DNA of 64,000 nt, from IMG/VR virus record IMGVR_UViG_3300044471_000009, positions 25,968 through 89,967 of that record. The stretch is one strand, 5' to 3'. Position numbers and translations under genes: made by a program. This stretch comes from a virus (taxonomy: Duplodnaviria > Caudoviricetes). Below, piece after piece: positions 45,481-62,703 of the stretch; position 1 is the stretch's first letter; every line of letters begins with the position of its first letter. The notes under the pieces were generated by a model that was not told the origin of the DNA, searched no databases, and saw only the letters and a program-made list of their open reading frames with translations.

Positions 45481-45612
45481 AGCAAAACTCATGCCAGTTT
45501 TATTGAAATAAAAATATCAAGCGAAACTGCATGTTTACAAAATTCACAGCTCAAAATTAGTACAAACTTTAGAACAAAGTTTAAAATGTTGAATTTAATA
45601 ATTTGAACTTTA
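45481..45612 (-). promoter_or_regulatory. Sigma-54 module A
   Basis: TGGCAT-GAGTT-TTGCT at 45496-45481; enhancer AAAGTTCAAA...TTTAAACTTT at about 45612-45560. Confidence 0.8.
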
Positions 45613-45655
45613 CCAGGCCCGACGTTGTGAGTGTAGCTGGTAACGTCGGGCCTGG
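45613..45655. terminator. 14-bp perfect hairpin
   Basis: CCAGGCCCGACGTT-N15-AACGTCGGGCCTGG after the 45664 stop. Confidence 0.6.
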
Positions 45656-45663
45656 ATTGATCT

Positions 45664-46425
45664 TTACTGCTGTGCAGGCGGCTCGGTGCTTGATTCAGCG
45701 GGCTGCTCGGTTTCTATTGGCGACAAAGGCTGCTTTTTTTCCGTTGACTCTGTGCTTTCTTTAATCCACTTTTCGCAGCCTGCAAACAACTGACACGCTG
45801 TTTTGCAGTGCGTTTCCGTTACCTTGCACATCCATTGCGGATTATCGCATTCGATGCCAGCATTGAGCCTTTCCTGCGTAGCCTTGAATGCAGCTCCAAG
45901 TCGATTGGTTTTTACATCGGCAGGGAGCGAAGAGAACCTTGACTTGATGTTTTCTATGTCCTTGCCGGTACAGGCTTGAGAGATCAACGAAAGGGCTTCT
46001 TTGACAGATTCCTCGGTGCCGTCCTTGATTACCAGCGGGGAAACTTTCCACACCCCGCGTTTTCCGCGTGTCATGATATACGACACGTTTAAGTCTTTCG
46101 TTATTCCTTCTGCGTGTGAAATCCTAACCCCTCCTGATTTTATACCTCCGCCAAGGTTCATCCCTTCATCCTTATTGAGATACAGCGTGATTCTTTTGCC
46201 TATCCAGTTTTTCGAGTCGCCACCATAGAGGCCAACGAGAACTCTACGCATCGTTAGGCATGGCTTAAAAGGCTTGTGACCTCCTTCCAGCTTTACAGTC
46301 AACGGCTGCTCTCCGCTTGTCACTGCAACAGCGGCTATCTTTACCGTTACCGGGCCTGCTGAAAAATCATCGCAGTTTAGCTGGTCTGACTTGATGCTGA
46401 TTATTGTTTTCATTATATCACTCAT
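45664..46425 (-). CDS. Conserved phage protein, putative ssDNA-binding/annealing partner of the exonuclease
   Basis: KSDQLN.DD...GP.TV.I...KPFKPC.TMRRVL...GG.RISH pattern; coupled to the exonuclease gene. Confidence 0.55.
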   Translation of the reverse strand: MSDIMKTIISIKSDQLNCDDFSAGPVTVKIAAVAVTSGEQPLTVKLEGGHKPFKPCLTMRRVLVGLYGGDSKNWIGKRITLYLNKDEGMNLGGGIKSGGVRISHAEGITKDLNVSYIMTRGKRGVWKVSPLVIKDGTEESVKEALSLISQACTGKDIENIKSRFSSLPADVKTNRLGAAFKATQERLNAGIECDNPQWMCKVTETHCKTACQLFAGCEKWIKESTESTEKKQPLSPIETEQPAESSTEPPAQQ

Positions 46426-47254
46426 TTTCGCTGTCTCCTTCTGATGGAATTATCTCTACATCGCTGTAGTCTTCGAGTGGAATCAAATCAGGGTATCTAT
46501 GATCGTTTTCGCTGCCGTGTAGCCAGTTATGCTCTGCTTCCGCAATCTTCCGTCTTCCGCGCTCGATGAAAGAAGGGAACGCCATGAACACCATGATCGT
46601 ATATGGAGCCTGATTCGATATTGCAATTATGTAATAATTTTCAACATCGAATCCACAGGCAGCGGCAGCCTGCATATACCACGCGGCCTGAATATCGTAA
46701 CCATACCTGTCCGCCGCTCGAAAGAAAGAGCCTTGGTCTTCAGCTCTCGTTGTCTTTACATCTGCGATATACCTTCCAGCAGTTGCCCTGCCGTCAAGCC
46801 GCGCTTTGCATTTCCCGAACCCGCTTCCATATTCAAGATTATGCGAATCAAAGAATAGACTCTCTTCTTTTTCGTCGCATCCAAGAATTAGCCCCCTCGC
46901 CAGTTCGTGAGACATTGCAGAGGCGGTCATGGCATCGGCTTCAGCTTTCTCTTTCGCGGTGATGTAATATTCGGAGGGATTATCTGCTTGGAATTGATTC
47001 CACCATTCGCCATTCCTGACAACCTTTACCTCTTTGCCTTTGTTGTCAATCCGTGTTTCAGGGACAACGACCAACTTGCTGTAGTCATCAGGTTCAAGCA
47101 ACGCCATGTGGCAAAAAGTTCCGCCGTTCATTGACTTGCTTGATTTCTCTTTAAGTCCAGATTGATACAGCGTCCAGTCTCTTTTTGACTTATAAAGCTG
47201 CATAATCTGCGATGATGACATTGCGTTGATGCTGTGATATTCAGCGGCTTTCAT
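46418..47254 (-). CDS. RecE/exonuclease VIII-like PD-(D/E)xK nuclease (DUF3799-like)
   Basis: EYH...AMSSS...GT..H...LEP...KCKARLD...IADVKTT...YGYDIQAAWY. Confidence 0.85.
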   Translation of the reverse strand: MKAAEYHSINAMSSSQIMQLYKSKRDWTLYQSGLKEKSSKSMNGGTFCHMALLEPDDYSKLVVVPETRIDNKGKEVKVVRNGEWWNQFQADNPSEYYITAKEKAEADAMTASAMSHELARGLILGCDEKEESLFFDSHNLEYGSGFGKCKARLDGRATAGRYIADVKTTRAEDQGSFFRAADRYGYDIQAAWYMQAAAACGFDVENYYIIAISNQAPYTIMVFMAFPSFIERGRRKIAEAEHNWLHGSENDHRYPDLIPLEDYSDVEIIPSEGDSENE

Positions 47255-47305
47255 CTGCTCTCCTTTTGCTTGTTTTGGCCCGACAACGCGCCGGGCTAAT
47301 CTTAA

Positions 47306-47593
47306 CTACGGCTTCCATTCGGTCACGGTTTTTCCGTCCTGGCTTACAATGCCAACTTCGACCATCCCGCCGCCTATTAAGGCGATTATCATCGGCTCCT
47401 TTGCTAACTTGCCATATCCAGTATCAACTCGTAGCTTCCCTCCTGCTGTCATAGCTGCCTGAATCAAAACCCTTTCGTGCACAGTCCGCCCTATACCTGT
47501 TTTAGCGTCAAGCCAAGAGTCAAGCCTTGCAAGGTAGAATCGCAGTATCCTGATGAATCTATTCATTGCTTTCCTCTCCACCCGCATCCACAC
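47306..47593 (-). CDS. Hypothetical protein
   Basis: 95 aa. Confidence 0.45.
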   Translation of the reverse strand: MWMRVERKAMNRFIRILRFYLARLDSWLDAKTGIGRTVHERVLIQAAMTAGGKLRVDTGYGKLAKEPMIIALIGGGMVEVGIVSQDGKTVTEWKP

Positions 47594-48234
47594 CTCTCAA
47601 TCGGCAAATAAACGCCGTCCACCTGATCGCTCCCGCTCGCATCTCCGCAAGCCGGGCAAGTCCTTGCTGCTGCCCATTGCTCATCAGCCAACACCTGCGC
47701 CGCATCAGCCAGCTCCTGCACGGTCAGCCGCCTGTAGTCGCCGCCCCACCGGCAGCCGGGCGTTTCGCACCGCTGAAACTCAAGCTGGCCGAGCCGGTTA
47801 GCCGAGTGAACGCCGTAATATCGGGCATTCATGCAGCCGCAGCCGCAGGGCTCGCCTGCGTCCCATTTGTCAGCCGGATAGATGCTGCCGCATCTGCTGC
47901 ACACCATGCGCGTCTCGCGGTGCAGCGTGTGCTTGCCGCAGTCAGGGCAGGTCACTGCCTCAACGTTTTGCGCAATCCACTGCGTCAGGCAGGACAGACC
48001 GCGGCCTTTGATGATCTGCTTGGCCAGTTCGGCGGCGGTGTGGATGTGCGGGCGGTGGGACGGGAAGCCGTTAGTGTGGAGCCAGTTTTGCAGCTCCTCT
48101 GCGCTCATACAGGAGTCCTGATCCGCGCTACTTTGTGGGCAAAACTTGCAATCCCCTTGATCGCAATGTCCATATTCAGTGAGGCAGCCCAGCACGTCAT
48201 ACGCCTTTCCCGCCTGCTCTTGCAACTTGCTCAT
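47563..48234 (-). CDS. Multi-Zn-ribbon protein
   Basis: Numerous CxxC motifs. Confidence 0.55.
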   Translation of the reverse strand: MSKLQEQAGKAYDVLGCLTEYGHCDQGDCKFCPQSSADQDSCMSAEELQNWLHTNGFPSHRPHIHTAAELAKQIIKGRGLSCLTQWIAQNVEAVTCPDCGKHTLHRETRMVCSRCGSIYPADKWDAGEPCGCGCMNARYYGVHSANRLGQLEFQRCETPGCRWGGDYRRLTVQELADAAQVLADEQWAAARTCPACGDASGSDQVDGVYLPIERCGCGWRGKQ

Positions 48235-48514
48235 CTCTCCACCTCCTTGTGGTCTCGGTTATTTTGTCTTCTGCGGCCTGTGAAATCACTCGCATCCGCT
48301 CTTCAATCTGCCGGATTGCCTCTCGCATTCCGGCAGACTCTTTGCGATGGTCAAATTCCCTGTCGGGCATCTTGACTCCTGATGCGTTCGCGGGCCAGTC
48401 TTAGCGCGGCATCGTCAGCGGCCTGCTGTTTCTCCTGCTTCTTGGCTTCACGCTGGGCGGCCAGTTGGGCTACAGCATCTTGCAGCCAGCTTGGCTTCTG
48501 TCTTTCGTGTTCAA

Positions 48515-48823
48515 TCATTTCGGCTCCTCCTGCGGTCCTTGCTTGATCTTCAGCGTTTTTCCGCCAGTTCCGGCCTTTCCGCCAACCTGCTCAAGTCCCA
48601 TGCTGTCCAGCAAATCCCATACAAGCTGATTGCTGCGCTCCCCCTGAAAGCATTGAGGTGCGAGTTCCGGCAGCTTGGCGTAAGCTGGATTCAGAAACTT
48701 CCCTTTGCCGGTTCGCAGCTTCACCGCCCCGTCGTTTTCGATAGCCGCTCCCCTCAGGAGCCACGCCATCGCAATTATCTGGCAATGCCGGGCTTCTGGC
48801 TTTGCGTGTGGTATTATTTTCAT
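48515..48823 (-). CDS. Hypothetical protein
   Basis: 102 aa. Confidence 0.5.
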   Translation of the reverse strand: MKIIPHAKPEARHCQIIAMAWLLRGAAIENDGAVKLRTGKGKFLNPAYAKLPELAPQCFQGERSNQLVWDLLDSMGLEQVGGKAGTGGKTLKIKQGPQEEPK

Positions 48824-48850
48824 CTATGCCTTTTGGTTTTGGTTTTAATC

Positions 48851-49036
48851 TTAATAGATAGCATTCCAGATACCTTTTGCTACACCTGAAGCTGTTATCG
48901 AAACTATCGCACCGATCATCATCTTGTAAGGAACGGCAATATCTTTCAATGGCCCTTCCATGCAGGCCCAACACGCAACGACCCATGATGGATAAAAAAT
49001 TACAAGCAAAAGCAATGCGTACAGGATAGACTTCAT
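48851..49036 (-). CDS. Small membrane protein
   Basis: 61 aa, two hydrophobic segments, preceded by the hairpin-leader repeat. Confidence 0.6.
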   Translation of the reverse strand: MKSILYALLLLVIFYPSWVVACWACMEGPLKDIAVPYKMMIGAIVSITASGVAKGIWNAIY

Positions 49037-49043
49037 TTATTTT

Positions 49044-49082
49044 CTCCATTCAGGTTTTCCCGGCCCGATGCAGGCTGGGAGT
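49044..49082 (-). repeat. Hairpin + CTGAATGGAG leader, copy 1
   Basis: TCCCAGCC-TGCATC-GGGCCGGGAAAACCTGAATGGAG. Confidence 0.7.
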
Positions 49083-49093
49083 TTATCGGCGAT

Positions 49094-49894
49094 TTAGTCT
49101 TGACCGGTCAGCAGCTTGATGGCGTATTTTGCTCGCTCTATCAGCTCGATAACTGGATATTCTTCTTCCGTTTCAGCAGCGATAATGTCCACCAGTGCGC
49201 CGTGAGCTGCTTTGATTTTTCGGTCAACGCTTGCTGTTTCCTTACGCAGCTGGTTGACCTCACTCCTTGCCTGATCTTTCGCGGAATCCACATTGTAAGC
49301 CAGTTTTGACAGCAGCGACATGACAACAGGGCTTTCGTGCAGATTTAGGGCCGTAAACTCTTCGTTTACCATTTCCTGCCTTGCTCTGGATGTTGGCTTT
49401 TTTGTCAGCGCATCCAGAGCGTCTGCGAATCCTTGTCCAGCTTTTCCGTGCAGCCGAAGCACTTCGGCCTTAATCTCGTCGGCGATGGTCTTGTCGCCGG
49501 TACGCTCTTTATTTTTTTCCATTTTTGTCTCCTCTTTGCTAATAAAAACATCACCGTCAATAACGGTAACAGATTCACTGCCTTGCATCCTGATTTCGTT
49601 GACCGTTACCGAGCCGGTGCCGGAGCAGCTATTACCCTTGCCTTGGATTTGCTGAGAAACAACAGTTCTGCTCTTGCCGTCTTCAGAGTACGTCACCACC
49701 ACGTTTTCGTTGCTTTTTATTGCTGGGCTTTGATCGCCAGCTGTGCTGATACAGACCTTGTCTCCGCCCACATTGTCGCCTCCGCCTGACATTACTTGCT
49801 GCACTATGGTGTTGACCTGACTGGCTATGGCGTTTTTTCCGTGCGCAACGCTCATGTCTTTGCTTCCTGTGAAGTAGTTGATAAGGGTTTTCAT
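49094..49894 (-). CDS. Hypothetical protein, first gene under sigma-54 module B
   Basis: 266 aa, AGGAG RBS; Gly/Ser/Val-rich N-half and coiled C-half. Confidence 0.65.
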   Translation of the reverse strand: MKTLINYFTGSKDMSVAHGKNAIASQVNTIVQQVMSGGGDNVGGDKVCISTAGDQSPAIKSNENVVVTYSEDGKSRTVVSQQIQGKGNSCSGTGSVTVNEIRMQGSESVTVIDGDVFISKEETKMEKNKERTGDKTIADEIKAEVLRLHGKAGQGFADALDALTKKPTSRARQEMVNEEFTALNLHESPVVMSLLSKLAYNVDSAKDQARSEVNQLRKETASVDRKIKAAHGALVDIIAAETEEEYPVIELIERAKYAIKLLTGQD

Positions 49895-50058
49895 GATTCG
49901 TTCTCCTGTTGGTTTCTATCTACGGCCCGCTTGCCGCTCTTCATCGTGAGTACATCTTACCACGTTCAAGCGGTCTATGCAAGACCAAAATCGGGGGTGA
50001 TAGACCGTTTTGTGTTTTTTTTTATTTTCACCGCATTCACTCTTGCTGCTTTTGCACA

Positions 50059-50190
50059 TGCAAAACGTATGCCAGATTCAGTATAATAAAATATTAAGCA
50101 AATTAAGTAACTTGTAAAAATCAAGGTTTCGGATTAGTGCAGTTTTTTATACAAAGTTCAAATTTTTGATTCAAGATTTTGTAATTGAGA
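50059..50190 (-). promoter_or_regulatory. Sigma-54 module B
   Basis: TGGCAT-ACGTT-TTGCA at 50074-50059; enhancer ...TTTGAACTTTGTAT at about 50190-50148. Confidence 0.8.
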
Positions 50191-50396
50191 AGGAATTGGG
50201 GGTCGGATGAGTTTTTTTTGACTATGCGAAATGAAACCTTGGGAAAATAACCGATATGGTGTAAAATGCGAAAAACGGCCCCTGGAAGGGCTTCGGCTGT
50301 GCAGAATCAGACCGCCGTATTGGAATTTGACAGGAATGGTGCAGTGTTACGATGTAGGTGATGACGTGTAGAGATAGCTGTAGGTGTGTTTTCAAA

Positions 50397-50427
50397 GCAG
50401 GCCGGTTGACTCCGGCCTGCTTTTTTT
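50397..50427 (+). terminator. Intrinsic terminator
   Basis: GCAGGCCGG-TTGACT-CCGGCCTGC then T7. Confidence 0.75.
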
Positions 50428-50644
50428 GTTTGCGGCAAGCTGGTTAGCTGCCCGGCAGTTCGCACTGTATATATAGCGTTGTCGAAAATGCACAGAAACG
50501 GGCTGAATTTCAACGATAGCTCGCCGGGGTGATAGGTTATAGGCGTTCATGTGCCGGAAGGGGCTTGCTGGGCAATTTGCGGCGTTTCGACGGAACAGGC
50601 AATCCTGCCTGTTTAAACTGTTCCCTGAAACTTTTTTTTGCTTA

Positions 50645-50689
50645 ACCTTAATTTTTTTTCTTTACACAGACAAAAAATTAAGGTATAGT
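50645..50689 (+). promoter_or_regulatory. Sigma-70 promoter with operator-like inverted repeat, copy 1
   Basis: TTTACA-17-TATAGT inside ACCTTAATTTTTT-N14-AAAAAATTAAGGT. Confidence 0.8.
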
Positions 50690-50734
50690 TATTTTATCAG
50701 CAGCACAGACCACTAAAAAAAACCGGGGAACACC

Positions 50735-51445
50735 ATGAACGCAACAATCCACAGAGCAAACGAGATCAGAAAAGAAGCAGCGGTAAAGTTCGGCGGAAAG
50801 CCCGGTGATTACAGTTTAAAAATCGCCTGCGAAATGGCGAAAAACGGAGAAAAAATCATGAACAGCAAGACGATCAATGCAAGGAGTGAGAGGGGCCAGG
50901 ATTTTGAATTTGAGATCGCCGACGGAAAGATTGTGGCGGCAACAGTGATCAGCCTGACAAGAGGGCCGCTGCTGATAGATAGCCCCTGTCTTTCAGGGTC
51001 AATGTTGGACGGCAAGGTCGCGGGAGAAGATGGCAGGAGCATCAGGATATGTGTTGGATTCCGCGCCGCTACGGTGAAAGAGATACGGGCAGCCATCGAG
51101 CATAGCCAGCCCGCAGAACCGGAAGTCACCGAAACAATACCGGGGTTGACAGCCTTGCGCAAAGCCAGAGACAAACGCGGCTACGAGCACGAGATGCTGA
51201 TGCGGGCAATTGACAGCGGAAGCAGCAGATGCCCAAAACAGACTGTCACCGACGCGCAGGTTGAGGCTCTGGAGGCTCAGTACCCGGCAGCCGTAGCGTA
51301 TCTCCGGGCCGAGAGTTACGAGCAAGCGTCGAACCTGAACAAGTATTCCGCCGGACGCAAGGCCAAGGAGCTGTTACTCTCCAGCGGCAGCGTGGAGCGG
51401 GCTAATGAGATAATGGACAACTGGCTGCCAGCGTATTGCGATTGA
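50735..51445 (+). CDS. Early hypothetical protein
   Basis: 236 aa; RANEIRKEAAVKFGGK N-terminal module. Confidence 0.7.
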   Translation: MNATIHRANEIRKEAAVKFGGKPGDYSLKIACEMAKNGEKIMNSKTINARSERGQDFEFEIADGKIVAATVISLTRGPLLIDSPCLSGSMLDGKVAGEDGRSIRICVGFRAATVKEIRAAIEHSQPAEPEVTETIPGLTALRKARDKRGYEHEMLMRAIDSGSSRCPKQTVTDAQVEALEAQYPAAVAYLRAESYEQASNLNKYSAGRKAKELLLSSGSVERANEIMDNWLPAYCD

Positions 51446-51457
51446 TTTACAGATAAC

Positions 51458-51502
51458 TTCCCCAGCCCAATTGCGGGCCGGGGGAATATAAACTGAATGG
51501 AG
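51458..51502 (+). repeat. Hairpin + AACTGAATGGAG leader, copy 2
   Basis: TTCCCCAGCCC-AATTGC-GGGCCGGGGGAATATAAACTGAATGGAGG. Confidence 0.7.
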
Positions 51503-51787
51503 GGCATAATGGATGTAAATATCTACCCGGAACTGGAAGCAACCCCCCTTATCGTACGGTCACCATACGGGACAGTAAAGCTTAAGTACACCCCAAAGCA
51601 TGAGAATTTCTGGGGAATGATAGTAAAAGGCGCATGGGTTGCAATCATGATTGACGGAGAATACAAAGGCAAGTCAGAAAGTCATCATCACCACGGATGG
51701 TGCGTCAGTCACCTGCTCTCCGCGTGTGCATCAATGTCTGCGGTCAAGCTGGTGCAGGACGCGCTGGCAGCAAGAGGGCTTGCATAA
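51497..51787 (+). CDS. Hypothetical protein
   Basis: 96 aa; the start may be 51509. Confidence 0.6.
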   Translation: MEGIMDVNIYPELEATPLIVRSPYGTVKLKYTPKHENFWGMIVKGAWVAIMIDGEYKGKSESHHHHGWCVSHLLSACASMSAVKLVQDALAARGLA

Positions 51788-51800
51788 CAATTGACTTAAC

Positions 51801-51824
51801 GCCACCCAAGCGCGCTTGGGTGGC
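51801..51824. repeat. Perfect 24-bp palindrome
   Basis: GCCACCCAAGCG-CGCTTGGGTGGC. Confidence 0.9.
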
Positions 51825-51834
51825 AAGGGTAGCC

Positions 51835-52233
51835 ATGAAGGCGACGATAGGGTTGGAATTATTCGGCGACAATGTTAGGAAGATGTATTCTTTCTACAGC
51901 AACATGCTGGATGAGGTTGCTTTTGGCCTTGGCAGACACATAACGGCAGGTTGTTTCAGTAATTCTTCATGGGTTGCTGAGATAACAGGGTTTAGTGACA
52001 AGTACAAGTATGAGAGGGCATTTCTTTCATACAAAAAGGATTACAGCATGGCAAACTCGAAAGGAAGCAGGGGTGTTTACGTGTGGTATATCCTTGAGTC
52101 TGGAAAGTATTACGATATAAAAAGTCAATACAGTCACAGGAGCCACAACAGGTATTTCGCAAAAGTGTCGAGTTGTGGCGATATAGTAAAGGTAGAAGAA
52201 GAGGAGGTTGTGTCATGGCTAAGAAGCCGATAG
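51835..52233 (+). CDS. Conserved protein upstream of the IbrA-like gene
   Basis: SWVAEITG...KY...R.FL...DYS.ANSKGSRGV..WY.L..G..Y pattern. Confidence 0.65.
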   Translation: MKATIGLELFGDNVRKMYSFYSNMLDEVAFGLGRHITAGCFSNSSWVAEITGFSDKYKYERAFLSYKKDYSMANSKGSRGVYVWYILESGKYYDIKSQYSHRSHNRYFAKVSSCGDIVKVEEEEVVSWLRSR

Positions 52234-53414
52234 GGATAAATGTTCTTGAGGCTGCCAAGAGAAGAATTTCACTGGTTTTCGATGATTTTCCACGCATCTA
52301 TATCAGCTTCAGCGGAGGGAAAGATAGTGCAGTTATGATGCACTTAGTGATGGATGAGGCGATTAGGAGAAAGCGAAGAGTCGGTGTTCTGTTTATCGAT
52401 CTTGAGGCACAGTATAAATTTACAATTGATCATGTCAGATCAATGTATAATCTGTACGCAGAGCACATTGAACCATACTGGATTGCTCTTCCAATCCATC
52501 TTAGAAATGCTGTGAGTCAATATGAGCCGCAGTGGGTATGCTGGGAGGCAGACCGCAAGGCTGATTGGGTTCGCCAGCCTGAATCCGTAAGCATTACAGA
52601 CGAAACTAAATTCCCATTTTTCAGACATGCCATGGAATTTGAAGAGTTTGTTCCAGAGTTTGGCAAATGGTTTGCTGGCGACAAACTCTGCGCCTGCTTT
52701 GTCGGGATAAGATCAGATGAAAGCCTTAATCGATACCGAACCATTGCCAGCAGAAAGAAAAGCACATTCGAGAATCGACAATGGATGACATGGTGCGGGG
52801 GCTGCCTTTACAATGTCTACCCGATCTATGATTGGCGCACGGAAGATATATGGACATATTTCGGCAAAACAGGAAAGCCGTACAACCGGCTCTACGACCG
52901 TATGCACCAGGCAGGGCTGACTATCCATCAGGCAAGGATATGCCAGCCATACGGTGACGATCAGCGCAAGGGACTTTGGCTGTTTCACATTATCGAGCCG
53001 GAGACTTGGGGGAAAATAGTTGCTCGCGTGAATGGTGCTAACCAAGGAGCGTTGTATTGCAACACATCAGGCAATGTGCTTGGGTATAGAGGAATTACTA
53101 AGCCAGAGGGATTGACATGGAGAGAATTTGCCAACCGGCTATTGTCTTCCATGCCTGAACGTGCCGCCGACCAATATCGCAATAAAATTGCAGTGTTCCT
53201 TAAATGGTACACCGTAAGAGGCTATCCTGACGGCATACCTGATGAGGGGCCGATGACTGACAAGGGGATACCGAGCTGGACTCGAATTTGCAAGGCTCTG
53301 TTGCGTAATGACTATTGGTGCAAGGGGTTGTCATTCTCCCAAAACAAAACAACGGCGTTTGATAAATATCAAAAAATAATGAAGAAAAGGAGGCAGGAAT
53401 GGGGCTTGATCTGA
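52215..53414 (+). CDS. ibrA: IbrA/YbdN-like PAPS-reductase-fold protein (DUF3440)
   Basis: PP-loop ISFSGGKDS, FIDLEAQY, GIRSDESLNR, YPIYDW, RICQPYGDDQRKGL; start after GAGGAGG. Confidence 0.88.
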   Translation: MAKKPIGINVLEAAKRRISLVFDDFPRIYISFSGGKDSAVMMHLVMDEAIRRKRRVGVLFIDLEAQYKFTIDHVRSMYNLYAEHIEPYWIALPIHLRNAVSQYEPQWVCWEADRKADWVRQPESVSITDETKFPFFRHAMEFEEFVPEFGKWFAGDKLCACFVGIRSDESLNRYRTIASRKKSTFENRQWMTWCGGCLYNVYPIYDWRTEDIWTYFGKTGKPYNRLYDRMHQAGLTIHQARICQPYGDDQRKGLWLFHIIEPETWGKIVARVNGANQGALYCNTSGNVLGYRGITKPEGLTWREFANRLLSSMPERAADQYRNKIAVFLKWYTVRGYPDGIPDEGPMTDKGIPSWTRICKALLRNDYWCKGLSFSQNKTTAFDKYQKIMKKRRQEWGLI

Positions 53415-54406: not shown

Positions 54407-54495
54407 CAGATGCGCCGCATGTTCAACTGCCCAGTCTGTTTACAATTGCGGGCTGGGCAGCTCTATAGATTTGCGTTTCAATCTTATTTTTTTTT

Positions 54496-54544: not shown

Positions 54545-54599
54545 CTCTGTATAAGATTTGAGCGGCAATCAAGCCGAAATAAAAACACCGGAGAGCAAA

Positions 54600-56672
54600 A
54601 TGAAAAGAGAGACCCCGAACGCAAAAAGAAGAGCGGTATCAATTAGCCCGTCAAGCAAAAACCACATGACAGCTACAATCAGAAGGGGCTTTGCTCTTCT
54701 GATTGAAAATGGACTGACACAGGGGGCGATTGGCCGGATTAGCTACAAGATAGAGGTTGAGGGTGGTACCTACAAAGGAGTTACAGCAAGGCGTGAATCT
54801 AATGATTATGGGGTCATGGAAACAAAGATAGACAAGTACGAATTCACCGCTTCATTTGTTGGCGAAGAGGCAAATGGCGTTGAAGTTGCCGCAGCCGAAG
54901 ACGCTGCGGTTGTTTCCGATGAGCAAGTAGCCGAGAAAGACACTTTGACAGTGGAAAATGCGCATACCGCATACACAGTAGAAGACAAGACTCACCCGGA
55001 ATATGGATTCAGACTATTTAACTACCAAGACCAGCCAATGAACGATGGCAAGAAACCACTAAGCAGCATTGGCACCGGAAGCAACGGCAAGGTGATTTTT
55101 GAAAGCGAATATCACCTCTACAGGATAGTGCACACGCGGGCTGATGTTGGTTTGAAAGACAATCAGGCCAGCAAGACCGAAGCAGCAAAGGTAAACTTCA
55201 GCACAGGCAAAGTCGCTGAAGAGTCCGCGCCTGACTACCGCGACAAGGAAATCCTCATCACCATGCACTGTCCGGTCAAGGGTCACAAGGTGGCGCGGCT
55301 TGTAAGCATGAATATGTTTTCAATCCCGGACTACAACGCCGACGAAGGCTGGGAGTGCAACATAATAACTAAGGACGAAGACAAGAGGGTGGAGCTGATC
55401 AAGCGATGGATAGACGAGCGGGCGAATGAGCAGCATGAGTCAAACCTTGAGTTTGTGAAATACGAAATTGTCGAAGAGGGGGTTTTTGCAGAGCGGGACT
55501 TAAACGGGCAGCTTAGGCTGGAAGCTGAAAAGCATGATTGTGAGGAACGCGATGTCAAAGTTGGGGATGTTGTCAGTAGCCGCACAGATGTAAACAGGCT
55601 CGGCCTAAGAGTTGAAACAACATGTACTGTCAAGCATGTTTTTGACAATGCTCTGCAACTGGAGGAATATTTTGAGCAGGACTGCATTACGGAAAGAAGC
55701 ATGTATGATGCTTTCAAGCCTTTTTATAACTTGGAGCTAAATTTCCACTGCCCGTTATGGCATTGCATTGGAGGCGAAAAGCTATGGCTGTCTTATGATG
55801 ACAAGAGCAAGGTTTACTTGATAACATCATACAGCGACGAGATAAACAAAGATGATGTCATGAACAGGGAAAAGGAATTTAGAAAATTCTCCTTGATTGC
55901 AAAGGAGCTTGGAGCGAAGGCATTTAAGGAAGGGGAGACATGCAAATCCGATCTTGACGATGATTTCAACGCTATGTTAGATCAGGTCAAATTCAAAGGT
56001 TTCAACCTTTCAGATCACTACTTTTTCGGATGGAGCGATGAAAAAGTAGCCTTTGAAGCCAGAAAGAAAGAGTCATTAGCAGCGGATGACACACGCAAGA
56101 AAAGCGATGAGCCTAAAGAGGTGAATGCTGAGGTTGCGGCTGAAGCGGTGCTGGACATCCAAGGGCCGGAAGCGGAGTTGGCTCTCGAATCAGGCATGAC
56201 TATTGATAATCCTGACTATTCATTGCTTGAGGCTAATGGCGTGTGGGGCGGAGAGTTCAGGGGCCAATGGAAATACAAAATACTCCACAAAAGCGCAAGG
56301 TTTTTCAATTCATCAGACAAGTGGCTTGCCATTGGACATGCCGTTGCGGCCTACAACTCTATCCCTATTGCTGACCGGGTTGGAACAAAAGAAGAGGCGT
56401 ACAACAAGATAAATAAAGCAAGATACGACAGGCTGGACGCAATATGGGGCCTCAGCTCTATGGATGAACTTAGCGGCATGATGCAGAAAAGCAAGGCCTT
56501 GAGTGGATCATTGTTTAGCAGCGCACTGAAGGGAATGGACGCAAGGCCATTCAGTGTTGCGAGAAACAGGAGTGTCAGGGATAGACTGAAGGTTGGATAT
56601 GTTGGAGAGACAATAGCAGACCTCGCTTTCTATATGGAAGAGCGGGCGAAGATCGAGGCGATAGTTGAGTAG
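54600..56672 (+). CDS. Large acidic multi-domain early protein
   Basis: About 690 aa; start re-called after GGAGAG; no recognisable motif. Confidence 0.65.
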   Translation: MKRETPNAKRRAVSISPSSKNHMTATIRRGFALLIENGLTQGAIGRISYKIEVEGGTYKGVTARRESNDYGVMETKIDKYEFTASFVGEEANGVEVAAAEDAAVVSDEQVAEKDTLTVENAHTAYTVEDKTHPEYGFRLFNYQDQPMNDGKKPLSSIGTGSNGKVIFESEYHLYRIVHTRADVGLKDNQASKTEAAKVNFSTGKVAEESAPDYRDKEILITMHCPVKGHKVARLVSMNMFSIPDYNADEGWECNIITKDEDKRVELIKRWIDERANEQHESNLEFVKYEIVEEGVFAERDLNGQLRLEAEKHDCEERDVKVGDVVSSRTDVNRLGLRVETTCTVKHVFDNALQLEEYFEQDCITERSMYDAFKPFYNLELNFHCPLWHCIGGEKLWLSYDDKSKVYLITSYSDEINKDDVMNREKEFRKFSLIAKELGAKAFKEGETCKSDLDDDFNAMLDQVKFKGFNLSDHYFFGWSDEKVAFEARKKESLAADDTRKKSDEPKEVNAEVAAEAVLDIQGPEAELALESGMTIDNPDYSLLEANGVWGGEFRGQWKYKILHKSARFFNSSDKWLAIGHAVAAYNSIPIADRVGTKEEAYNKINKARYDRLDAIWGLSSMDELSGMMQKSKALSGSLFSSALKGMDARPFSVARNRSVRDRLKVGYVGETIADLAFYMEERAKIEAIVE

Positions 56673-56688
56673 TTAGCCTGCCCATTCC

Positions 56689-56822
56689 GTACAAAGTTCA
56701 AAATATTGAACACGAAGTTTTGAACTTTGTACTAAAATTTAAACCAAACCAGGCACGTTGTTTTTGCAAGTGCGCAGTTTGCTTGAATATTTTATTTATG
56801 CAAATCTGGCACGGTTTTTGCT
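56689..56822 (+). promoter_or_regulatory. Sigma-54 module C
   Basis: 15-bp inverted repeat GTACAAAGTTCAAAA-N14-TTTTGAACTTTGTAC; TGGCAC-GGTTT-TTGCT at 56807-56822. Confidence 0.85.
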
Positions 56823-56882
56823 TAACAGAGTATATAAAGCAGCGCGGCATGGAGCCAGCAGTGTAAACCAAGGGGAATAAAA

Positions 56883-57146
56883 ATGAGAGCAAGGAAAGTT
56901 CAGATAAACGCCAGTAACAGAGTTATTCAGGACAACGAAAAAGAAGCAGCAAGGAAGCTGCAAGCGACATTAGTCAGGATAGACAAAGGGGAGAGATTTT
57001 TCTTCAATATAACAATCTTAGAAAGCAAGGGGCTGATAAAAGGAATAGGTCATTACCGCAACAATTCATCTGGGAATAGGGAGCGGGTCAATACAACATG
57101 GCACCTGACCGAGAAGGCAAAACAGTTTTGCAGCGTGGTGATTTGA
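56883..57146 (+). CDS. Hypothetical protein, first gene under module C
   Basis: 87 aa. Confidence 0.6.
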   Translation: MRARKVQINASNRVIQDNEKEAARKLQATLVRIDKGERFFFNITILESKGLIKGIGHYRNNSSGNRERVNTTWHLTEKAKQFCSVVI

Positions 57147-57484
57147 TGGCAAAGGGAACATGGGCGAACCGAGAAAGAGAAAGGGCTTTTTCTGGCTTGA
57201 GGAAGGAAATAGAGGCAGCCGATAAGCAACGAGAGCAGGATTTCAAAGCGTCAATTCCGGCTACCTTGGCGAAGAATAAGGAGGAAAAGGAGTTCATGAC
57301 GCAGGTTGCGCTTGGAATCATGGCTAAAATCAAGCCCGGTGACAGCTTGGAATATTTTGGCCTTCCGAATGTGATTGCGGCAAAGATCAATAAAAAGTCA
57401 ATAACAGACAGCAATGGCGAGCGATGGAGTGTTGATTCGCTCAGAGGCATGATTCCAGCGATTAAAAGGAGAACAACGAGATGA
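57146..57484 (+). CDS. Hypothetical protein
   Basis: Start re-called at MAKGTW, overlapping the upstream TGA. Confidence 0.6.
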   Translation: MAKGTWANRERERAFSGLRKEIEAADKQREQDFKASIPATLAKNKEEKEFMTQVALGIMAKIKPGDSLEYFGLPNVIAAKINKKSITDSNGERWSVDSLRGMIPAIKRRTTR

Positions 57485-57987
57485 AAAAGATTGATATAGA
57501 TTGGAAGCATTTACGCAGCACTTGCGGATGGATGCTTAAAGAAAACGCCAGCGTTGATATCATACGCTCGGCAGATGCTATTGAAAATTCGATCAGGAGA
57601 AAAAGGTTATTTGGCAACAAGGATCTTTTTGCAAGCAAATACGCAGGCGGCGCGGAAAACAGAGAGATTCTATTCACTTGTGCGGATGAGTATATTCACG
57701 ATGGAGAAGCCAGCATTGAAGTCAGTGAGATATTCAGCAAACAAATGTCTCGCATTAAGCAGCATGGAATTTTTTCGGCTCTGGAAATTGCGGCAACAGG
57801 TGGCGACAGGAATGTTGATCGAGCGAAAGAGGTTATCGGCAAACACAAGGGCTTGTTGTTTGCTGGCGGAGGCCGTGCAATAGAAACCGCTATTAAAGAG
57901 CTGAAGGAAGAAGGCATGGCCATTAAGTATCGTCGCAAGATTAACGACTACTGGGAAGTCGAGGTCGTTAAAGGGGATACGAAATGA
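57481..57987 (+). CDS. Hypothetical protein
   Basis: 168 aa, ATGA coupling. Confidence 0.6.
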   Translation: MKKIDIDWKHLRSTCGWMLKENASVDIIRSADAIENSIRRKRLFGNKDLFASKYAGGAENREILFTCADEYIHDGEASIEVSEIFSKQMSRIKQHGIFSALEIAATGGDRNVDRAKEVIGKHKGLLFAGGGRAIETAIKELKEEGMAIKYRRKINDYWEVEVVKGDTK

Positions 57988-58397
57988 AAAAGAAAGAAAC
58001 AATCCTGTGTCACACGTTCATCGGCACCGTGCCGCTTGTGGTTGGAAAGAAGTTTCTGTTCGAGGCTGAAGGACAACAGCCGCGCCAGATGTGTGTGGTT
58101 AGGGATTATCCATTTATCTACATGACAAGGTTCCTGATGCCTGGATATGAGGTTATTGATTGCATGTCAGGGTTTATGGTTCCGCACATCGAAAATCATG
58201 CACATGATGCACGGCCAGACAGGATAATTCAGGCTTTTTACGAGAAGATGCAAAGTGGCTGGGTTTCACCTGATCGCATCGCAGCAGTCGTAAAAGATGC
58301 CAAACCTGAAGATGTTAAGTGGTCAGAATCCGAGCTGTCGACTATCCCGTGCGAGGTGAAGACGAAAATAAAACAGGTTTATGGGATATGCCTGTAG
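57984..58397 (+). CDS. Hypothetical protein
   Basis: 137 aa, ATGA coupling. Confidence 0.6.
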   Translation: MKKKETILCHTFIGTVPLVVGKKFLFEAEGQQPRQMCVVRDYPFIYMTRFLMPGYEVIDCMSGFMVPHIENHAHDARPDRIIQAFYEKMQSGWVSPDRIAAVVKDAKPEDVKWSESELSTIPCEVKTKIKQVYGICL

Positions 58398-58422
58398 TTT
58401 TAATCTATCAAGGAGGCTGCAA

Positions 58423-58698
58423 ATGAAAGGCATTGAGGAAGTGACTGCGTACCGCACCAGAGACGGCAAGCTGTTTGCAAATGCAGAAATGGCGGCGATA
58501 CATGCGGAATGGCTTGCCGAGATATACAGGACAGACAAGGATGAGCTGAACCTGATGGTCAAAAACCAGTGCCGCTGTAAACGAGCTATGAAGTACCTGC
58601 GCGGCAAGGAAGCCGCCGCAATGCAGTCAGTGATTGCCAATAGGGCGGCGAGGATAGCTATGCTTATGGAATTTATCAAGAAAGGGAGTGGCGCGTGA
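58423..58698 (+). CDS. Hypothetical protein
   Basis: AGGAGG RBS; MKGIEEVTAYRTRDGKLF. Confidence 0.6.
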   Translation: MKGIEEVTAYRTRDGKLFANAEMAAIHAEWLAEIYRTDKDELNLMVKNQCRCKRAMKYLRGKEAAAMQSVIANRAARIAMLMEFIKKGSGA

Positions 58699-59003
58699 TG
58701 ACCAATATAAAAGTACGTGATGCCGTGCATTGCCTTGTGTGTGGACATATTACCTTTTCTTGCAATTTAAGAAGAGATGGTGATTACACGGTCAGATTTT
58801 CTATGGGCAGAGGGTTGACAATAGAAAATGAAGACGACGCGGGAAATGCTGAAAGTGCCACCAAGGATGGAATACTTGACCTTATCAGGCAAGGCGATTC
58901 AGCTTCTTGGCCGGACTGGAATAGTTTCCTGCTCTACTGGATAGGGCAGGCTGAAGGACAGAGCAGAGGACATGCAAGCTGCATAAGGAATCGCAGTTTA
59001 TGA
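58695..59003 (+). CDS. Hypothetical protein
   Basis: 102 aa. Confidence 0.5.
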   Translation: MMTNIKVRDAVHCLVCGHITFSCNLRRDGDYTVRFSMGRGLTIENEDDAGNAESATKDGILDLIRQGDSASWPDWNSFLLYWIGQAEGQSRGHASCIRNRSL

Positions 59004-59165
59004 ATCTTTACCCACTATAAAAAGTAATCCCGTTTCCTTGCCTCGCAAAACAGCAGGAAACGGGCCTAAATTCAGCGTTTATGGTGGCGGCGGTACGGTT
59101 AGGCGTTGAGGTGGAGAATGGCAACAGAGGGGCGTTTGAGGTGTTTCTTAACTAAAGGAGAAAAA

Positions 59166-59534
59166 ATGATGACAAGAGCAATCCGCAACACGGACGAATT
59201 CGCCGAGCTGCTTGATTTTGTGCAAAGCAGACTAATCCTGCCTGCTGAAGCTGTGCTGCCGGTCGAGCCGGTGGAATGCAAGGAAAACGCTAAGAAGTTC
59301 CACTACACTGGCTCGGAAGTGTTTTTCAAGGATGTGAAATGTATATCTGTTGAAGAGGTGAGGAAGCTGCTGTGTGCCATGAAACATTGCACATCGTCTT
59401 GCTATTACCATGAACTTTTTAGCAAGGCGATGTATGAATTATGCCCAGATGCTTGTGAGGCAGTGGAGGGATTCCTTGCTGAATGGAGCAGCGATGAAGA
59501 TGCTAGAGCTTGTGCAGCAGGACAGCACCGTTGA
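59166..59534 (+). CDS. Hypothetical protein
   Basis: AAGGAG RBS. Confidence 0.55.
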   Translation: MMTRAIRNTDEFAELLDFVQSRLILPAEAVLPVEPVECKENAKKFHYTGSEVFFKDVKCISVEEVRKLLCAMKHCTSSCYYHELFSKAMYELCPDACEAVEGFLAEWSSDEDARACAAGQHR

Positions 59535-59565
59535 TGAGCTAAGGCCATAACCGCTCCCCTCCCGA

Positions 59566-59697
59566 TCAAGTTCAATATTTTGTATTCAATATTTTGCATT
59601 TTGTACAAATTATTGAATTAATCGGAAGGCGTGGTTTTTGTAAGTATGCCATTTTGCTGAAGATTTTATTTTTTGTGAAACTGGCATTCATTTTGCA
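59566..59697 (+). promoter_or_regulatory. Sigma-54 module D
   Basis: Enhancer CAAGTTCAATATTTTGTATTCAA...TTTTGTACAAA; TGGCAT-TCATT-TTGCA at 59682-59697. Confidence 0.8.
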
Positions 59698-59763
59698 TAT
59701 ACCAAGGTAACAACAGTGCGGCAATCGGGCCGCAGAACAAAGAAAACCAGAGCGGAGAGCATC

Positions 59764-59979
59764 ATGGCATCACACAATGCAAAGCAGAGCAGGACAGCGG
59801 AAGCGTACAAAAACGGCCTGCGCGTAAAGGGATTTTCTTCGGCAGCCAGAAAGAGCCTGCTTGACCGCTTTGACTGCGGAACTGATTGGGAGATGCTTGA
59901 GCATGATGTTTTCTTCTTGCCGGGATTGTTCCGCGTCACGGACGTAGCTCTTGCTGAAATAGCCGAAGGGTTGTTTTAG
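59764..59979 (+). CDS. Hypothetical protein, first gene under module D
   Basis: GGAGAG RBS; MASHNAK. Confidence 0.6.
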   Translation: MASHNAKQSRTAEAYKNGLRVKGFSSAARKSLLDRFDCGTDWEMLEHDVFFLPGLFRVTDVALAEIAEGLF

Positions 59980-60012
59980 TCCTTCATGTTACATCTCAAC
60001 CGAAGAAACACC

Positions 60013-60768
60013 ATGAGCGCAGTAACCGCAGCCAAATCCACAATAGACAGGCTCCTGAGCAACGGCAATGCTTCCGCGACAAGCGGATTGATCAGGGTAG
60101 AAGAGGCCGACGAAACTCTTGACGGCAAAGTGCTATGGAAAATATGGTACTACACAGAGTCTTTCAGTGGCACCGGGATCAGCGTCAACTACCGGCGTGA
60201 GGGTAGAGCGTGGATATACACAGTAATGAGTGACGCTACTGATTCAGCGTTCTTCAGCAAGACAGGCACGGCAAGAACGCTGAGAGAGGCCCGTTTGGAA
60301 GCATTGACCGCTATGGTGGCCGGATGCACTGCGCAGGCCGGAAAGGCGGAAAATAGCATCAAGGAAGAGCTGCTGGAGCTGATGCAATGCGACCCAGAGG
60401 CTCCGCTTAAAGCCTTGTTCAAGGACGGCCTTGTTGAGGAAAGAAGATCAGCTTGCGCTGCCACAATCAAAGCTGTGCTTGACTCCGGCCTACTGCCTGA
60501 TGAACTGCGCGACCAGTGGAAGGCCAGGTTGCTTGAACGGCTTGCACTTCGCGAACCAGAAGAGGACGAGGAAATCCCCGGTGGCCTCCTCTGGTTAAAC
60601 CGGTTAGCATCTGAAGGAGACGCTTGGAAAGCATCAAATTATGCTACGCGGGGAGCTGTTTGGTGCCGCTACCACTCCATCCTGGATTTAGCCAAGCACT
60701 ACGCCGCCCTGAACGCTGAGCGCGAACAGCAACACCGCGACCTGCTTGCCCTGATCAACGAGATGTAG
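60013..60768 (+). CDS. Hypothetical protein
   Basis: About 251 aa. Confidence 0.6.
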   Translation: MSAVTAAKSTIDRLLSNGNASATSGLIRVEEADETLDGKVLWKIWYYTESFSGTGISVNYRREGRAWIYTVMSDATDSAFFSKTGTARTLREARLEALTAMVAGCTAQAGKAENSIKEELLELMQCDPEAPLKALFKDGLVEERRSACAATIKAVLDSGLLPDELRDQWKARLLERLALREPEEDEEIPGGLLWLNRLASEGDAWKASNYATRGAVWCRYHSILDLAKHYAALNAEREQQHRDLLALINEM

Positions 60769-60845
60769 CGCAAAGCCTGCCTGCAAGCAAGCAGAAGGCG
60801 AATTTGGCCGACAACTGGCCTTCAAAACTAAAGCGGAGAAATAAC

Positions 60846-61310
60846 ATGTTTTTTTTAATCGCCGAGAAAGCCATTCTTGCAACACCCGACAGCATTGCAA
60901 GATCAGAGAACACAGTTGACATGACCGCAGAGCAGCTTGCGAATGATTACGATACGCAAGTTAAAGCAAAGATGGCAAGTGCTGTGTTTATCAAATCTGA
61001 TTCCTGGTTCCCGTCCGAGCCAAAGTCAAGAGCAGAAAGACTTAGGTTGATGGCGAGCTACCTTGCCGCATTCAAAGATGACGCAGGTGAGAGGCGGGAA
61101 GTGCTTGACTATATATCTGGAAACGGAATGGTGCGGATTCTTTGGCTTGATCAAGCGCAGGCCGCGAAAGAAGACTATCCACCCGCTGGAGACCTTGCCG
61201 CACGGGTGGCTGCTGACTGGCCTCGCCTTGAAGCGCAAATAAAAGGGCGGATAAGAAGGGAACTGTTTGGCCACAGGGATGAGTCGAGCCAGTCCAACAG
61301 CCTGCCTTGA
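60846..61310 (+). CDS. Hypothetical protein
   Basis: GGAGA RBS. Confidence 0.55.
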   Translation: MFFLIAEKAILATPDSIARSENTVDMTAEQLANDYDTQVKAKMASAVFIKSDSWFPSEPKSRAERLRLMASYLAAFKDDAGERREVLDYISGNGMVRILWLDQAQAAKEDYPPAGDLAARVAADWPRLEAQIKGRIRRELFGHRDESSQSNSLP

Positions 61311-61338
61311 CCAAAAAAAAACTAACCGGTAAACCATT

Positions 61339-61749
61339 ATGGACTTGACAAAACCGATCAACCAAGGAAGCTGCATTGACTGCGGCGCGGTGATTCAGCA
61401 GCCAGCAGGTAGCGGCAGACGGCGGGAGAGATGCAAGGCCTGCATCAAGGCACGGGCCTCGCATTACGCCACCAAGTGGAAGGCGACAAAAGCCGCAGAC
61501 GGGAAATGTATTGCTTGCGGGAAAGACAAGGGAGAAGCAGGACTGAGATGTCATCCATGCGCCAGAAAACACGTCGTCTCGAGTCTAAGGTCGCAAGAAA
61601 GGCGCAAGGCAGAGGGAAGGTGTAAATGCGGCGGCATACCGCAGGAAGGGTATGCCTACTGCCCTAAATGCTTGCAGTATTACCGCCAATGGCGCAAGAA
61701 AAACAAGGCAGCCACAGCTGCTTCCAGTGGGATAGCCGAGAGTCTTTAA
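61339..61749 (+). CDS. Tandem Zn-finger protein
   Basis: CIDC, CKAC, CIAC, CHPC, CKC and CPKC; basic. Confidence 0.65.
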   Translation: MDLTKPINQGSCIDCGAVIQQPAGSGRRRERCKACIKARASHYATKWKATKAADGKCIACGKDKGEAGLRCHPCARKHVVSSLRSQERRKAEGRCKCGGIPQEGYAYCPKCLQYYRQWRKKNKAATAASSGIAESL

Positions 61750-61823
61750 AACCAACGCGCCGCACAGCCCACCTGTCCGGCACTCAAAAAAACTGGCTAT
61801 ACCGGCCAAAAGGAGATACGCAA

Positions 61824-62207
61824 ATGGAGCAAACGACAGTTGACACCACTCAGCTAAAGGCAAAGATTGATCAGCTTCGAGCTGAAAAGAAAGAAGCGCA
61901 TGATGCCGTGGCAAGGATCGAATACCAGTTAGATACAAAAGGACGAACTTTCAGGCTCTTCAGCGCAACCGAGGAGGAAAGGGGGTGGTATGGAAAAACG
62001 AAATATGCGCTAAGGAAGCATAAGCAGATGGCGAATGACTTGCAAGTGCAAATCGGAAAGCTAAATGAAGAGCTAAAGAGAGCTGCGCATTTAGAGTATG
62101 AAGCAAGGCGAGAAAAATGCTTTATCGTGATAGCCAAGCGAAAACTTCCACCCGCTGTTTTCGAGGCAATCTTGAACGAGACAATCCAGCAGGTAGGCGC
62201 ACTGTAA
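61824..62207 (+). CDS. Coiled-coil hypothetical protein
   Basis: AGGAGA RBS. Confidence 0.6.
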   Translation: MEQTTVDTTQLKAKIDQLRAEKKEAHDAVARIEYQLDTKGRTFRLFSATEEERGWYGKTKYALRKHKQMANDLQVQIGKLNEELKRAAHLEYEARREKCFIVIAKRKLPPAVFEAILNETIQQVGAL

Positions 62208-62271
62208 GCAAAAGCAAACCAAACGGGCCAGAGATCAGCTCTGGCCCTGAATATGAAGAATGGAGAAGTAA

Positions 62272-62559
62272 ATGATCACCCTGAATTTCTTTTTGGCCCT
62301 GCTTTTAGGCTGGACATCAGCGACTGCAAATACATATTTCACGACGAAATACGGGGGCGATTCCAATATGCTGATCATCCCCGTTGTCCTTATGGCACTT
62401 GCCATCGTGCTTGCGGCCAATGGCGGAGAAATGCAAGGAAGGAAGCAGCAGCAAAAGAATATGATCGAGGCAATGAATAAACAGCAAGAGGTTATCGTTG
62501 CGCAAATGAAAGAGCTTAACTCCAAGCTCAGAGCCAAGGATTCTGCCGAGGGCCGCTAA
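62272..62559 (+). CDS. Two-TM membrane protein with coiled tail
   Basis: Two hydrophobic segments. Confidence 0.6.
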   Translation: MITLNFFLALLLGWTSATANTYFTTKYGGDSNMLIIPVVLMALAIVLAANGGEMQGRKQQQKNMIEAMNKQQEVIVAQMKELNSKLRAKDSAEGR

Positions 62560-62572
62560 CCACCTTCCACCC

Positions 62573-62703
62573 CAAAGTTCAAATTCTTGTATTCAGCTTT
62601 TTAAACTTTGTACAAGAATTTAAACTAATCTGAACAAGCAGTTTTTGCAAACACCTGATTTTACGTGATATTTTTTAGTTTCAAAACTGGCACGACCTTT
62701 GCA
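62573..62703 (+). promoter_or_regulatory. Sigma-54 module E
   Basis: CAAAGTTCAAATTCTTGTA...TTTAAACTTTGTACAAGAATTTAAACT; TGGCAC-GACCT-TTGCA at 62688-62703. Confidence 0.85.

Follow-up and report, generated by a model that had tools for sequence, protein, structure and literature searches.

Textbook phage transcription relies on host sigma-70, on phage sigma factors, or on phage polymerases. Enhancer-dependent sigma-54 (RpoN) promoters, in which the intervening DNA bends between the activator sites and the polymerase, are classically those of Proteobacteria, such as glnAp2 with NtrC, Pu with XylR, and pspA with PspF. Among phages, late transcription of T4 employs the sigma factor gp55, gp33, and the gp45 sliding clamp as a mobile enhancer. 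The promoter classes of T4 are summarised in a preprint (10.64898/2026.10.06.757011), which also deals with Htm (gp204) of Mosigvirus AV110, a phage AAA+ protein that has a fold like that of bacterial enhancer-binding proteins (bEBPs) and lacks both GAFTGA and a helix-turn-helix; its action on sigma-54 polymerase is only hypothesised, and no phage sigma-54 promoters are described (10.64898/2026.10.06.757011). The gp2 protein of Pectobacterium phage Q19 has been called 'sigma-54-like' on the basis of a weak HHpred match only (PMC7693777). Full-text literature searches found no phage sigma-54 promoter regulon. Here we describe five modules with the features of enhancer-dependent sigma-54 promoters in a 64-kb window (bases 25968-89967 of the 89,967-bp IMG/VR virus record IMGVR_UViG_3300044471_000009), through which the phage probably borrows a regulatory switch of its host.

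Each module contains a box that matches TGGCAY-N5-TTGCW exactly and carries the -24 GG and -12 GC elements, one helical turn apart, within the sigma-54 consensus YTGGCACG-N4-TTGCW, which reportedly follows Barrios et al. 1999. The boxes are P45.5 (TGGCATGAGTTTTGCT, 45481-45496, minus strand), P50.0 (TGGCATACGTTTTGCA, 50059-50074, minus strand), P56.8 (TGGCACGGTTTTTGCT, 56807-56822, plus strand), P59.7 (TGGCATTCATTTTGCA, 59682-59697, plus strand), and P62.7 (TGGCACGACCTTTGCA, 62688-62703, plus strand). Dinucleotide-preserving shuffles of the window contain a mean of 0.41 such matches, none of 100 shuffles attained five, and a scan of the entire record yielded zero exact boxes beyond these. Since the bare core TGG-N9-TGC is not enriched (48 observed versus 47.6 expected), the signal resides in the full consensus. 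All five boxes are intergenic and co-oriented with the next gene, the first of a cassette on the same strand. The start codons of the genes behind the boxes are preceded by Shine-Dalgarno sequences and lie 60-68 nt downstream of four boxes (62 nt for P45.5) and 164 nt downstream of P50.0. The original prediction, which had placed five boxes at these coordinates and strands, each facing the first gene of a same-strand cassette, and had called for comparison with a shuffled background, is borne out on all these points. One near-match (TGGCATCTGTTTTGCG, 35687-35702, minus strand), which deviates by a single mismatch, was rejected; it is located within a small leftward-arm gene, has no enhancer or other upstream element, and is probably a chance match or an intragenic binding site.

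Alignments of the five loci, and of 11 copies in all, revealed that the boxes are the 3' portions of paralogous modules of ~165 bp each, in which an enhancer block and an AT-rich spacer precede the promoter core. With positions numbered from the first G of the GG, the enhancer block consists of three 16-bp palindromes, RTWCAA-N4-TTGWAY, with centres at about -105, -91, and -72, and the first two share two bases. Thus, dyad-symmetric sites in the ~70-150 bp upstream range are found in every module, and their positions are identical across all modules and also in a relative. This agrees with the repeated enhancer architecture that had been noticed at the outset. The blocks lie at 45560-45608 (P45.5, minus strand; centres at -105.5, -91.5, and -72.5), 50137-50184 (P50.0, minus strand; the most degenerate, with two palindromes of up to two mismatches at -103.5 and -90.5), 56696-56744 (P56.8, plus strand; with a perfect GTTCAA-N4-TTGAAC palindrome at -104.5), 59570-59618 (P59.7, plus strand; -105.5, -91.5, and -72.5, the first two overlapping), and 62577-62625 (P62.7, plus strand; -104.5, -90.5, and -71.5). 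The phage palindromes have zero to two mismatches to RTTCAA-N4-TTGAAY. Sites with at most one mismatch to this word occur nine times in the whole 90-kb genome, compared to 0.69 times in shuffles, and eight of the nine fall within the enhancer blocks; the five blocks jointly account for less than 1% of the sequence.

The conserved spacer reads TTTTTGYAAR-N16-RATATTTTATT. The promoter core, AA-N-CTGGCAY-N5-TTGCW-T, fits the extended sigma-54 consensus, with purines at -30 and -29 and a pyrimidine at -27, and the sole stretches near the start that are invariant in the 11 copies are AA-N-CTGGCA and TTTGC-N-T. A hidden Markov model built from these copies matches the genome at just these five places (E-values 1e-40 to 9e-34). 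Two side observations concern the sequences on either side of the -24 and -12 elements. Upstream, the spacer element TTTTTGYAAR-N16-RATATT (56763-56797 in the window, and equivalents) resembles a weak sigma-70 -35/-10 pair, and the copy in P50.0 alone passes a sigma-70 consensus scan (TTTACA-16-TAATAT, 50118-50091, minus strand). Downstream, the predicted leaders of P59.7 and P62.7 share a conserved stem-loop, UGCGGC-loop-GCCGCA, ~20-40 nt past the box (59717-59734 and 62721-62738, plus strand; 15832-15848 and 18805-18822 in the related contig L011; folding z-scores of -2.1 and -3.5), of which the P56.8 leader has a weaker form. This stem-loop may stabilise the 5' end or act as a regulatory hairpin.

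Comparison with relatives shows which parts of the modules resist change. A related-locus search with a 704-amino-acid protein returned nothing, and a scan of IMG/VR for the module pattern gave only chance-level matches (L001-L010); the relatives were reached through homologues of the 704-amino-acid protein and the contigs that carry them, and comprise a 68-kb contig from the Joint Genome Institute (L011/L014) and a 3.7-kb Logan contig (L012). L011 retains all five modules, unchanged in order and orientation, with the orthologues of P45.5, P50.0, P56.8, P59.7, and P62.7 at 3485 (minus strand), 7801 (minus strand), 12505 (plus strand), 15796 (plus strand), and 18770 (plus strand), respectively, and its next 12 kb hold no sixth module. 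The single module covered by L012, an orthologue of P56.8 at 2447 (plus strand), is also kept. The stretch between TGGCA and TTGCA in P62.7 differs from that in L011 at five of its six bases (CGACC to TTGGT), and in P50.0 four to five intervening bases are changed (TACGT to CGACT), while GG, GC, TGGCA, TTGC, and their spacing are unaltered in both pairs. Such conservation of the elements only is the pattern that would be expected if the protein that reads these sites contacts exactly the -24 and -12 elements, and we consider that the orthologous pairs carry the most weight in the argument for sigma-54.

Although annotated as linear and 78% complete, the record ends in 126 nt that recur without a difference at its nt 24-149, and the relative (L014) is collinear over the junction, from 88748-89180 of the record to 1082-1605, with matching distances. 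The genome is therefore complete, a closed circular or permuted unit of ~89.8 kb; the first 23-26 nt of the record, an inverted copy, look like an artefact of the assembly. Profile searches of the full record in six frames found no Sigma54_activat (PF00158) and no Sigma54_DBD (PF04552) domain and, up to an E-value of 1, no AAA (PF00004) and no HTH_8 (PF02954) domain. The gene tables of the relative (L011/L014) likewise list no bEBP. With a complete genome, a missing gene is a weak explanation for the lack of an activator, and the activator should therefore be supplied by the host.

The enhancer word is found again in bacteria. In a prokaryote scan with one genome per species, GTTCAA-N4-TTGAA followed after 70-100 nt by TGGCA-N6-TTGC was found at no fewer than 120 loci that combine the palindrome with a sigma-54 box; among the matches listed, at least 24 are named Acidobacteriota, many of them Aminicenantes. 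A census of the GTDB class that contains the Aminicenantes metagenome-assembled genomes (MAGs), using TTCAA-N4-TTGAA-N(55-105)-TGGCA-N6-TTGC, found 120 of 339 genomes to contain the pattern, at most six times each, whereas the reversed pattern occurs in none of the 339. In a sample of Thermodesulfobacteriota, six of 201 genomes contain the same pattern, and one of these is the seed. Genomes of the Aminicenantes class have one rpoN gene and 12-14 bEBP genes each. Eight of the nine downstream genes that were examined encode CarboxypepD_reg/Plug/beta-barrel proteins of TonB-dependent receptor types, and the ninth a GntR regulator. The sites of 38 distinct promoters from Aminicenantes are concentrated at -101 and -82; some lie at -90.5 and -71.5, the second and third positions of the phage, and the phage pair B/C is matched by the promoters L163 and L170. 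In one promoter, L151 of genome G105, there are three sites, the first two overlapping, with a spacing of 14+18 bp compared to 14+19 bp in the phage. The phage modules thus have the half-site word and tandem layout that stand upstream of TGGCA-N6-TTGC in these bacteria, and the bacterial boxes are mostly TGGCAT, the form also taken by three of the five boxes of the phage. When the phage region was compared with the class by BLAST, the matches were only weak and short, and seven of the 28 fall on the 55-nt enhancer of P59.7. The bacterial loci also form a set of their own (L138-L185 and L151), a class-wide regulon in which RTTCAA-N4-TTGAAY tandems and sigma-54 boxes mostly precede genes of TonB-dependent receptor types; a literature search on Aminicenantes and sigma-54 found no account of such a regulon.

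That the palindrome can serve a bEBP is indicated by a different group of bacteria. Five Binatia-type MAGs (L115, L133, L057, L095, and L109) have a common promoter with two palindromes 32 bp apart and a sigma-54 box, and its flank TTGAACTAATC is the same as in the phage. This promoter lies between a desaturase-like operon and a divergent operon for a histidine kinase and an NtrC-type bEBP (PF00158, E-value 8e-70), and since it adjoins a bEBP operon, the palindrome word is a genuine type of bEBP enhancer. At this locus (L115:984-6617), the two-component operon diverges from the promoter, which has a double GTTCAA-N4-TTGWAC enhancer and drives an operon of desaturase-like, methyltransferase, and DUF2306 genes. 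With a GC content of 0.58-0.60 compared to ~0.48 for the phage, and a single such site per genome, the Binatia-type MAGs were set aside as hosts. Most Aminicenantes loci have a GC content of 0.39-0.55, which is compatible with that of the phage, and the regulon with the same word points to Aminicenantes as a predicted host of this uncultured phage. Individual phage proteins are less specific: the neighbours of its HU/IHF-family protein come from mixed phyla, and its DnaB helicase shares no more than ~39% identity with the helicases encoded by phages from many hosts. We also noted a 1.76-kb contig (L150), binned in an Aminicenantes-class MAG, that encodes only the C-terminal portion of an IbrB/ParB-like protein, with 76% identity to the one encoded at 53399-54055 of the phage; given its GC content of 0.59, this contig is probably another mobile element and provides no host link.

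The gene blocks headed by the modules are a recombination cassette, a replication arm, and three cassettes without known families. The cassette behind P50.0 (45664-49894, minus strand) encodes proteins of 266, 152, 223 (with a zinc ribbon), 278, and 253 amino acids. The 278-residue protein (46418-47254, minus strand) is an exonuclease VIII-like PDDEXK nuclease (Pfam DUF3799, E-value 2.8e-18; PHROG exonuclease VIII, E-value 6.7e-39), and the gene for the 253-residue protein occupies the RecT slot of the relative, where the gene table of L011 lists YqaJ and RecT. Right after the stop codon of the latter gene, a hairpin with a 14-bp stem (45613-45655, minus strand) marks the boundary between the P50.0 cassette and P45.5; it was not flagged by the terminator scan because its loop is longer than 8 nt. 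The arm behind P45.5 (36474-45418, minus strand) runs, as judged by Pfam and PHROGs, from small genes without homologues, a radical SAM gene (43216-44169, minus strand), and an HNH/Lar-like gene to two helicases, one of them of DnaB type (36474-37775, minus strand). The radical SAM protein is ~50% identical to proteins in the 'uncultured phage' records LR756501 and LR745208 (735 kb and 485 kb). On the plus strand, P56.8 is followed by seven small genes without a Pfam or PHROG family (56883-59534), P59.7 by six genes without an assigned family (59764-62559, the start being taken from the sequence), and P62.7 by a cassette that extends past the window end into the start of the circular record (62772-64000 in the window), for which no family was found. 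The regulon therefore takes in delayed-early DNA-metabolism genes as well as unassigned cassettes and is not made up of accessory genes alone. Hence, the description of the regulated genes as accessory cassettes, which formed part of the original prediction, does not hold for the two leftward ones, that is, the exonuclease VIII-like gene with its partner and the arm that leads to the DnaB-type helicase.

The leftward and rightward arms are parted by a divergent region at ~50.1-50.7 kb. Of the sigma-70-type promoters in the region, the best (TTTACA-17-TATAGT, 50661-50689, plus strand) lies before the rightward early operon (50735-56672), which has no sigma-54 module and includes a PAPS-reductase/DUF3440 gene. 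Within the 660-bp divergent control region, a strong, GC-rich hairpin with a 12-bp stem and runs of T and A on both sides (50394-50423) looks like a bidirectional terminator; no gene call and no Rfam match was found at this hairpin, and Rfam gave zero matches in 44100-64000. Further away, a gene of the HU/IHF family (29142-29420, minus strand; PHROG_379, E-value 2.5e-24) has atlas neighbours that are all PF00216 clusters, and its product is a possible bender of the AT-rich spacer of the modules.

We propose that the modules are delayed-early promoters that depend on host RpoN and a host bEBP. They have every sequence feature of enhancer-dependent sigma-54 promoters that this analysis could test, and the sigma-54 promoter reading of the original prediction fits every sequence test run, namely, the conserved elements, the fixed palindromes, and the bacterial pairing of palindrome and box. 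From these features we infer sigma-54 dependence and a palindrome-binding protein, whereas the timing and the host are predicted. After injection, sigma-70 polymerase would read the early rightward operon, while the sigma-54 holoenzyme of the host would park on the -24 GG and -12 GC elements of the five boxes as closed complexes. A host activator of the NtrC family would then assemble on the three palindromes and reach the polymerase by bending of the AT-rich spacer, possibly aided by the HU/IHF-family protein of the phage, and hydrolysis of ATP by the activator would open the promoters. As a result, the recombination cassette, the replication arm, and the three family-less cassettes would be expressed in step with a host regulator and, the activator being that of the host, would track the signal that it senses. 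Most likely, the modules plug these five delayed-early units into the activator of receptor genes of the Aminicenantes type. We put the probability of the full statement, including the host switch, at about 0.6, and that of sigma-54 dependence taken alone somewhat higher. It is a more tentative suggestion, which we are inclined to doubt, that the phage copied the enhancer of the nutrient-receptor regulon of its host as a master switch for replication, recombination, and accessory cassettes, that it reads the nutritional or envelope state of the host in this way, by means of a host ATPase activator, and that its multiplying enhancers drain the activator from the receptor genes.

The activator of such sigma-54 promoters could also be an unrecognised phage protein, very divergent or not of the AAA+ type, that is made from the sigma-70 early operon and binds the palindromes. 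Family assignments are lacking for this operon and for most genes of the cassettes, the modules are almost identical to one another, as would be expected for the sites of one dedicated regulator, and a bEBP-like phage AAA+ protein without GAFTGA has been proposed to act on sigma-54 polymerase (10.64898/2026.10.06.757011). However, the complete genome contains no AAA or PF00158 candidate, even up to an E-value of 1, and a regulator private to the phage leaves it unexplained that the palindrome word and its layout stand before bacterial sigma-54 boxes. To our knowledge, every known route to opening of the sigma-54 complex employs the AAA+ domain of a bEBP, which also counts against this explanation, and we regard it as unlikely. 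Alternatively, the modules could bind the sigma-54 holoenzyme or the activator of the host, or both, but mainly be decoys or barriers, either because the 15 sites per genome copy titrate the host bEBP and so silence its receptor genes or because parked closed complexes insulate the cassettes from one another. Three sites in each of five modules on a replicating genome would suit such a role, as would the fact that the bacterial regulon is one of outer-membrane receptors, to which phages commonly attach. A decoy would nevertheless need neither the full -24/-12 element nor a fixed enhancer distance and orientation, and the modules are located exactly at the cassette heads, with every box facing a gene that has a ribosome-binding site and whose start codon lies at a usual distance from a promoter (60-68 nt). 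We therefore consider this role distinctly improbable.

Sigma-54 might also not be involved at all, if the spacer element were a weak sigma-70-type promoter under the control of a palindrome-binding regulator, with TGGCA...TTGC being transcribed or serving as an operator. The spacer element is indeed kept in all copies, and that of P50.0 passes the sigma-70 scan, but it is the only one of the five to do so, and sigma-70-like matches in the region are at the chance level (23 versus 21). Moreover, a sigma-70 promoter explains neither why the bases read by sigma-54 (AA and C at -30, -29, and -27) are invariant while the intervening bases are free, nor why the palindrome is coupled to TGGCA-N6-TTGC in 120 bacterial genomes and in none of the control. 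The sigma-70 reading of the spacer element is thus weak, and we judge this last explanation very unlikely.

Several observations weigh against promoters that depend on host RpoN and a host bEBP, or against parts of that proposal. The five modules are paralogous and do not represent five independent events, so the weight rests on the conservation pattern and not on the box count. The spacer fits the IHF consensus WATCAANNNNTTR only loosely. The terminator scan found no strong terminator before the rightward modules, and read-through from the sigma-70 early promoter could therefore express the rightward cassettes. As for the host, the pairing of the palindrome with a sigma-54 box is also found in other phyla, which makes Aminicenantes a favoured candidate and not a result, and the BLAST identity of up to 92% between the phage tRNA region and Aminicenantes genomes comes from a comparison that has no control phylum. 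A search by adjacency found no bEBP beside the Aminicenantes promoters, and a similarity search with the Binatia bEBP's DNA-binding domain gave best matches of only 30-35% identity.

If the proposal is true, delayed-early genes that await an ATP-driven enhancer protein of the host add a signal-gated layer to phage development. The case lends itself unusually well to testing, as no part of the genome is missing, the modules number only five, and a specific bacterial regulon is indicated by the enhancer word; its special value lies in this combination of a complete small regulon with an identifiable bacterial counterpart. As a by-product, the analysis brought to light a sigma-54 regulon of TonB-dependent receptor genes that extends across the Aminicenantes class, and we found no description of this regulon in the literature.

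Among the systems compared, the bacterial promoters of the Aminicenantes receptor genes resemble the phage modules in their half-site word, tandem palindromes, distance window, and preference for TGGCAT, and L151 even has the three-site layout. They usually have two sites 19-20 bp apart (-101 and -82), whereas the phage has three (-105, -91, and -72) with more degenerate half-sites, such as TTGTAT, TTAAAC, and GTACAA. Like the classical sigma-54 promoters, the phage modules combine the -24 GG and -12 GC elements and the extended consensus with two to three dyad activator sites 70-110 bp upstream, in a fixed helical register and separated from the core by an AT-rich segment. Unlike the classical promoters, they are found on a virus without the sigma factor or the activator, which reuses one cassette five times to head whole gene blocks, and their word, RTWCAA-N4-TTGWAY, is one that we cannot assign to any characterised bEBP. 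With the late genes of T4 they would share the principle of a gene class that is silent until ATP-dependent, enhancer-like activation, as proposed here from sequence; however, T4 supplies both sigma factor and activator itself, sigma-54 playing no part, while all protein parts would here be those of the host. Htm, the only link between phages and sigma-54 found in the searchable literature, is encoded by a gene of a kind that this phage does not have. Two features set the phage apart from known cases: its promoters reside on a viral genome that encodes none of the proteins involved, and a single promoter cassette is reused at the head of whole gene blocks.

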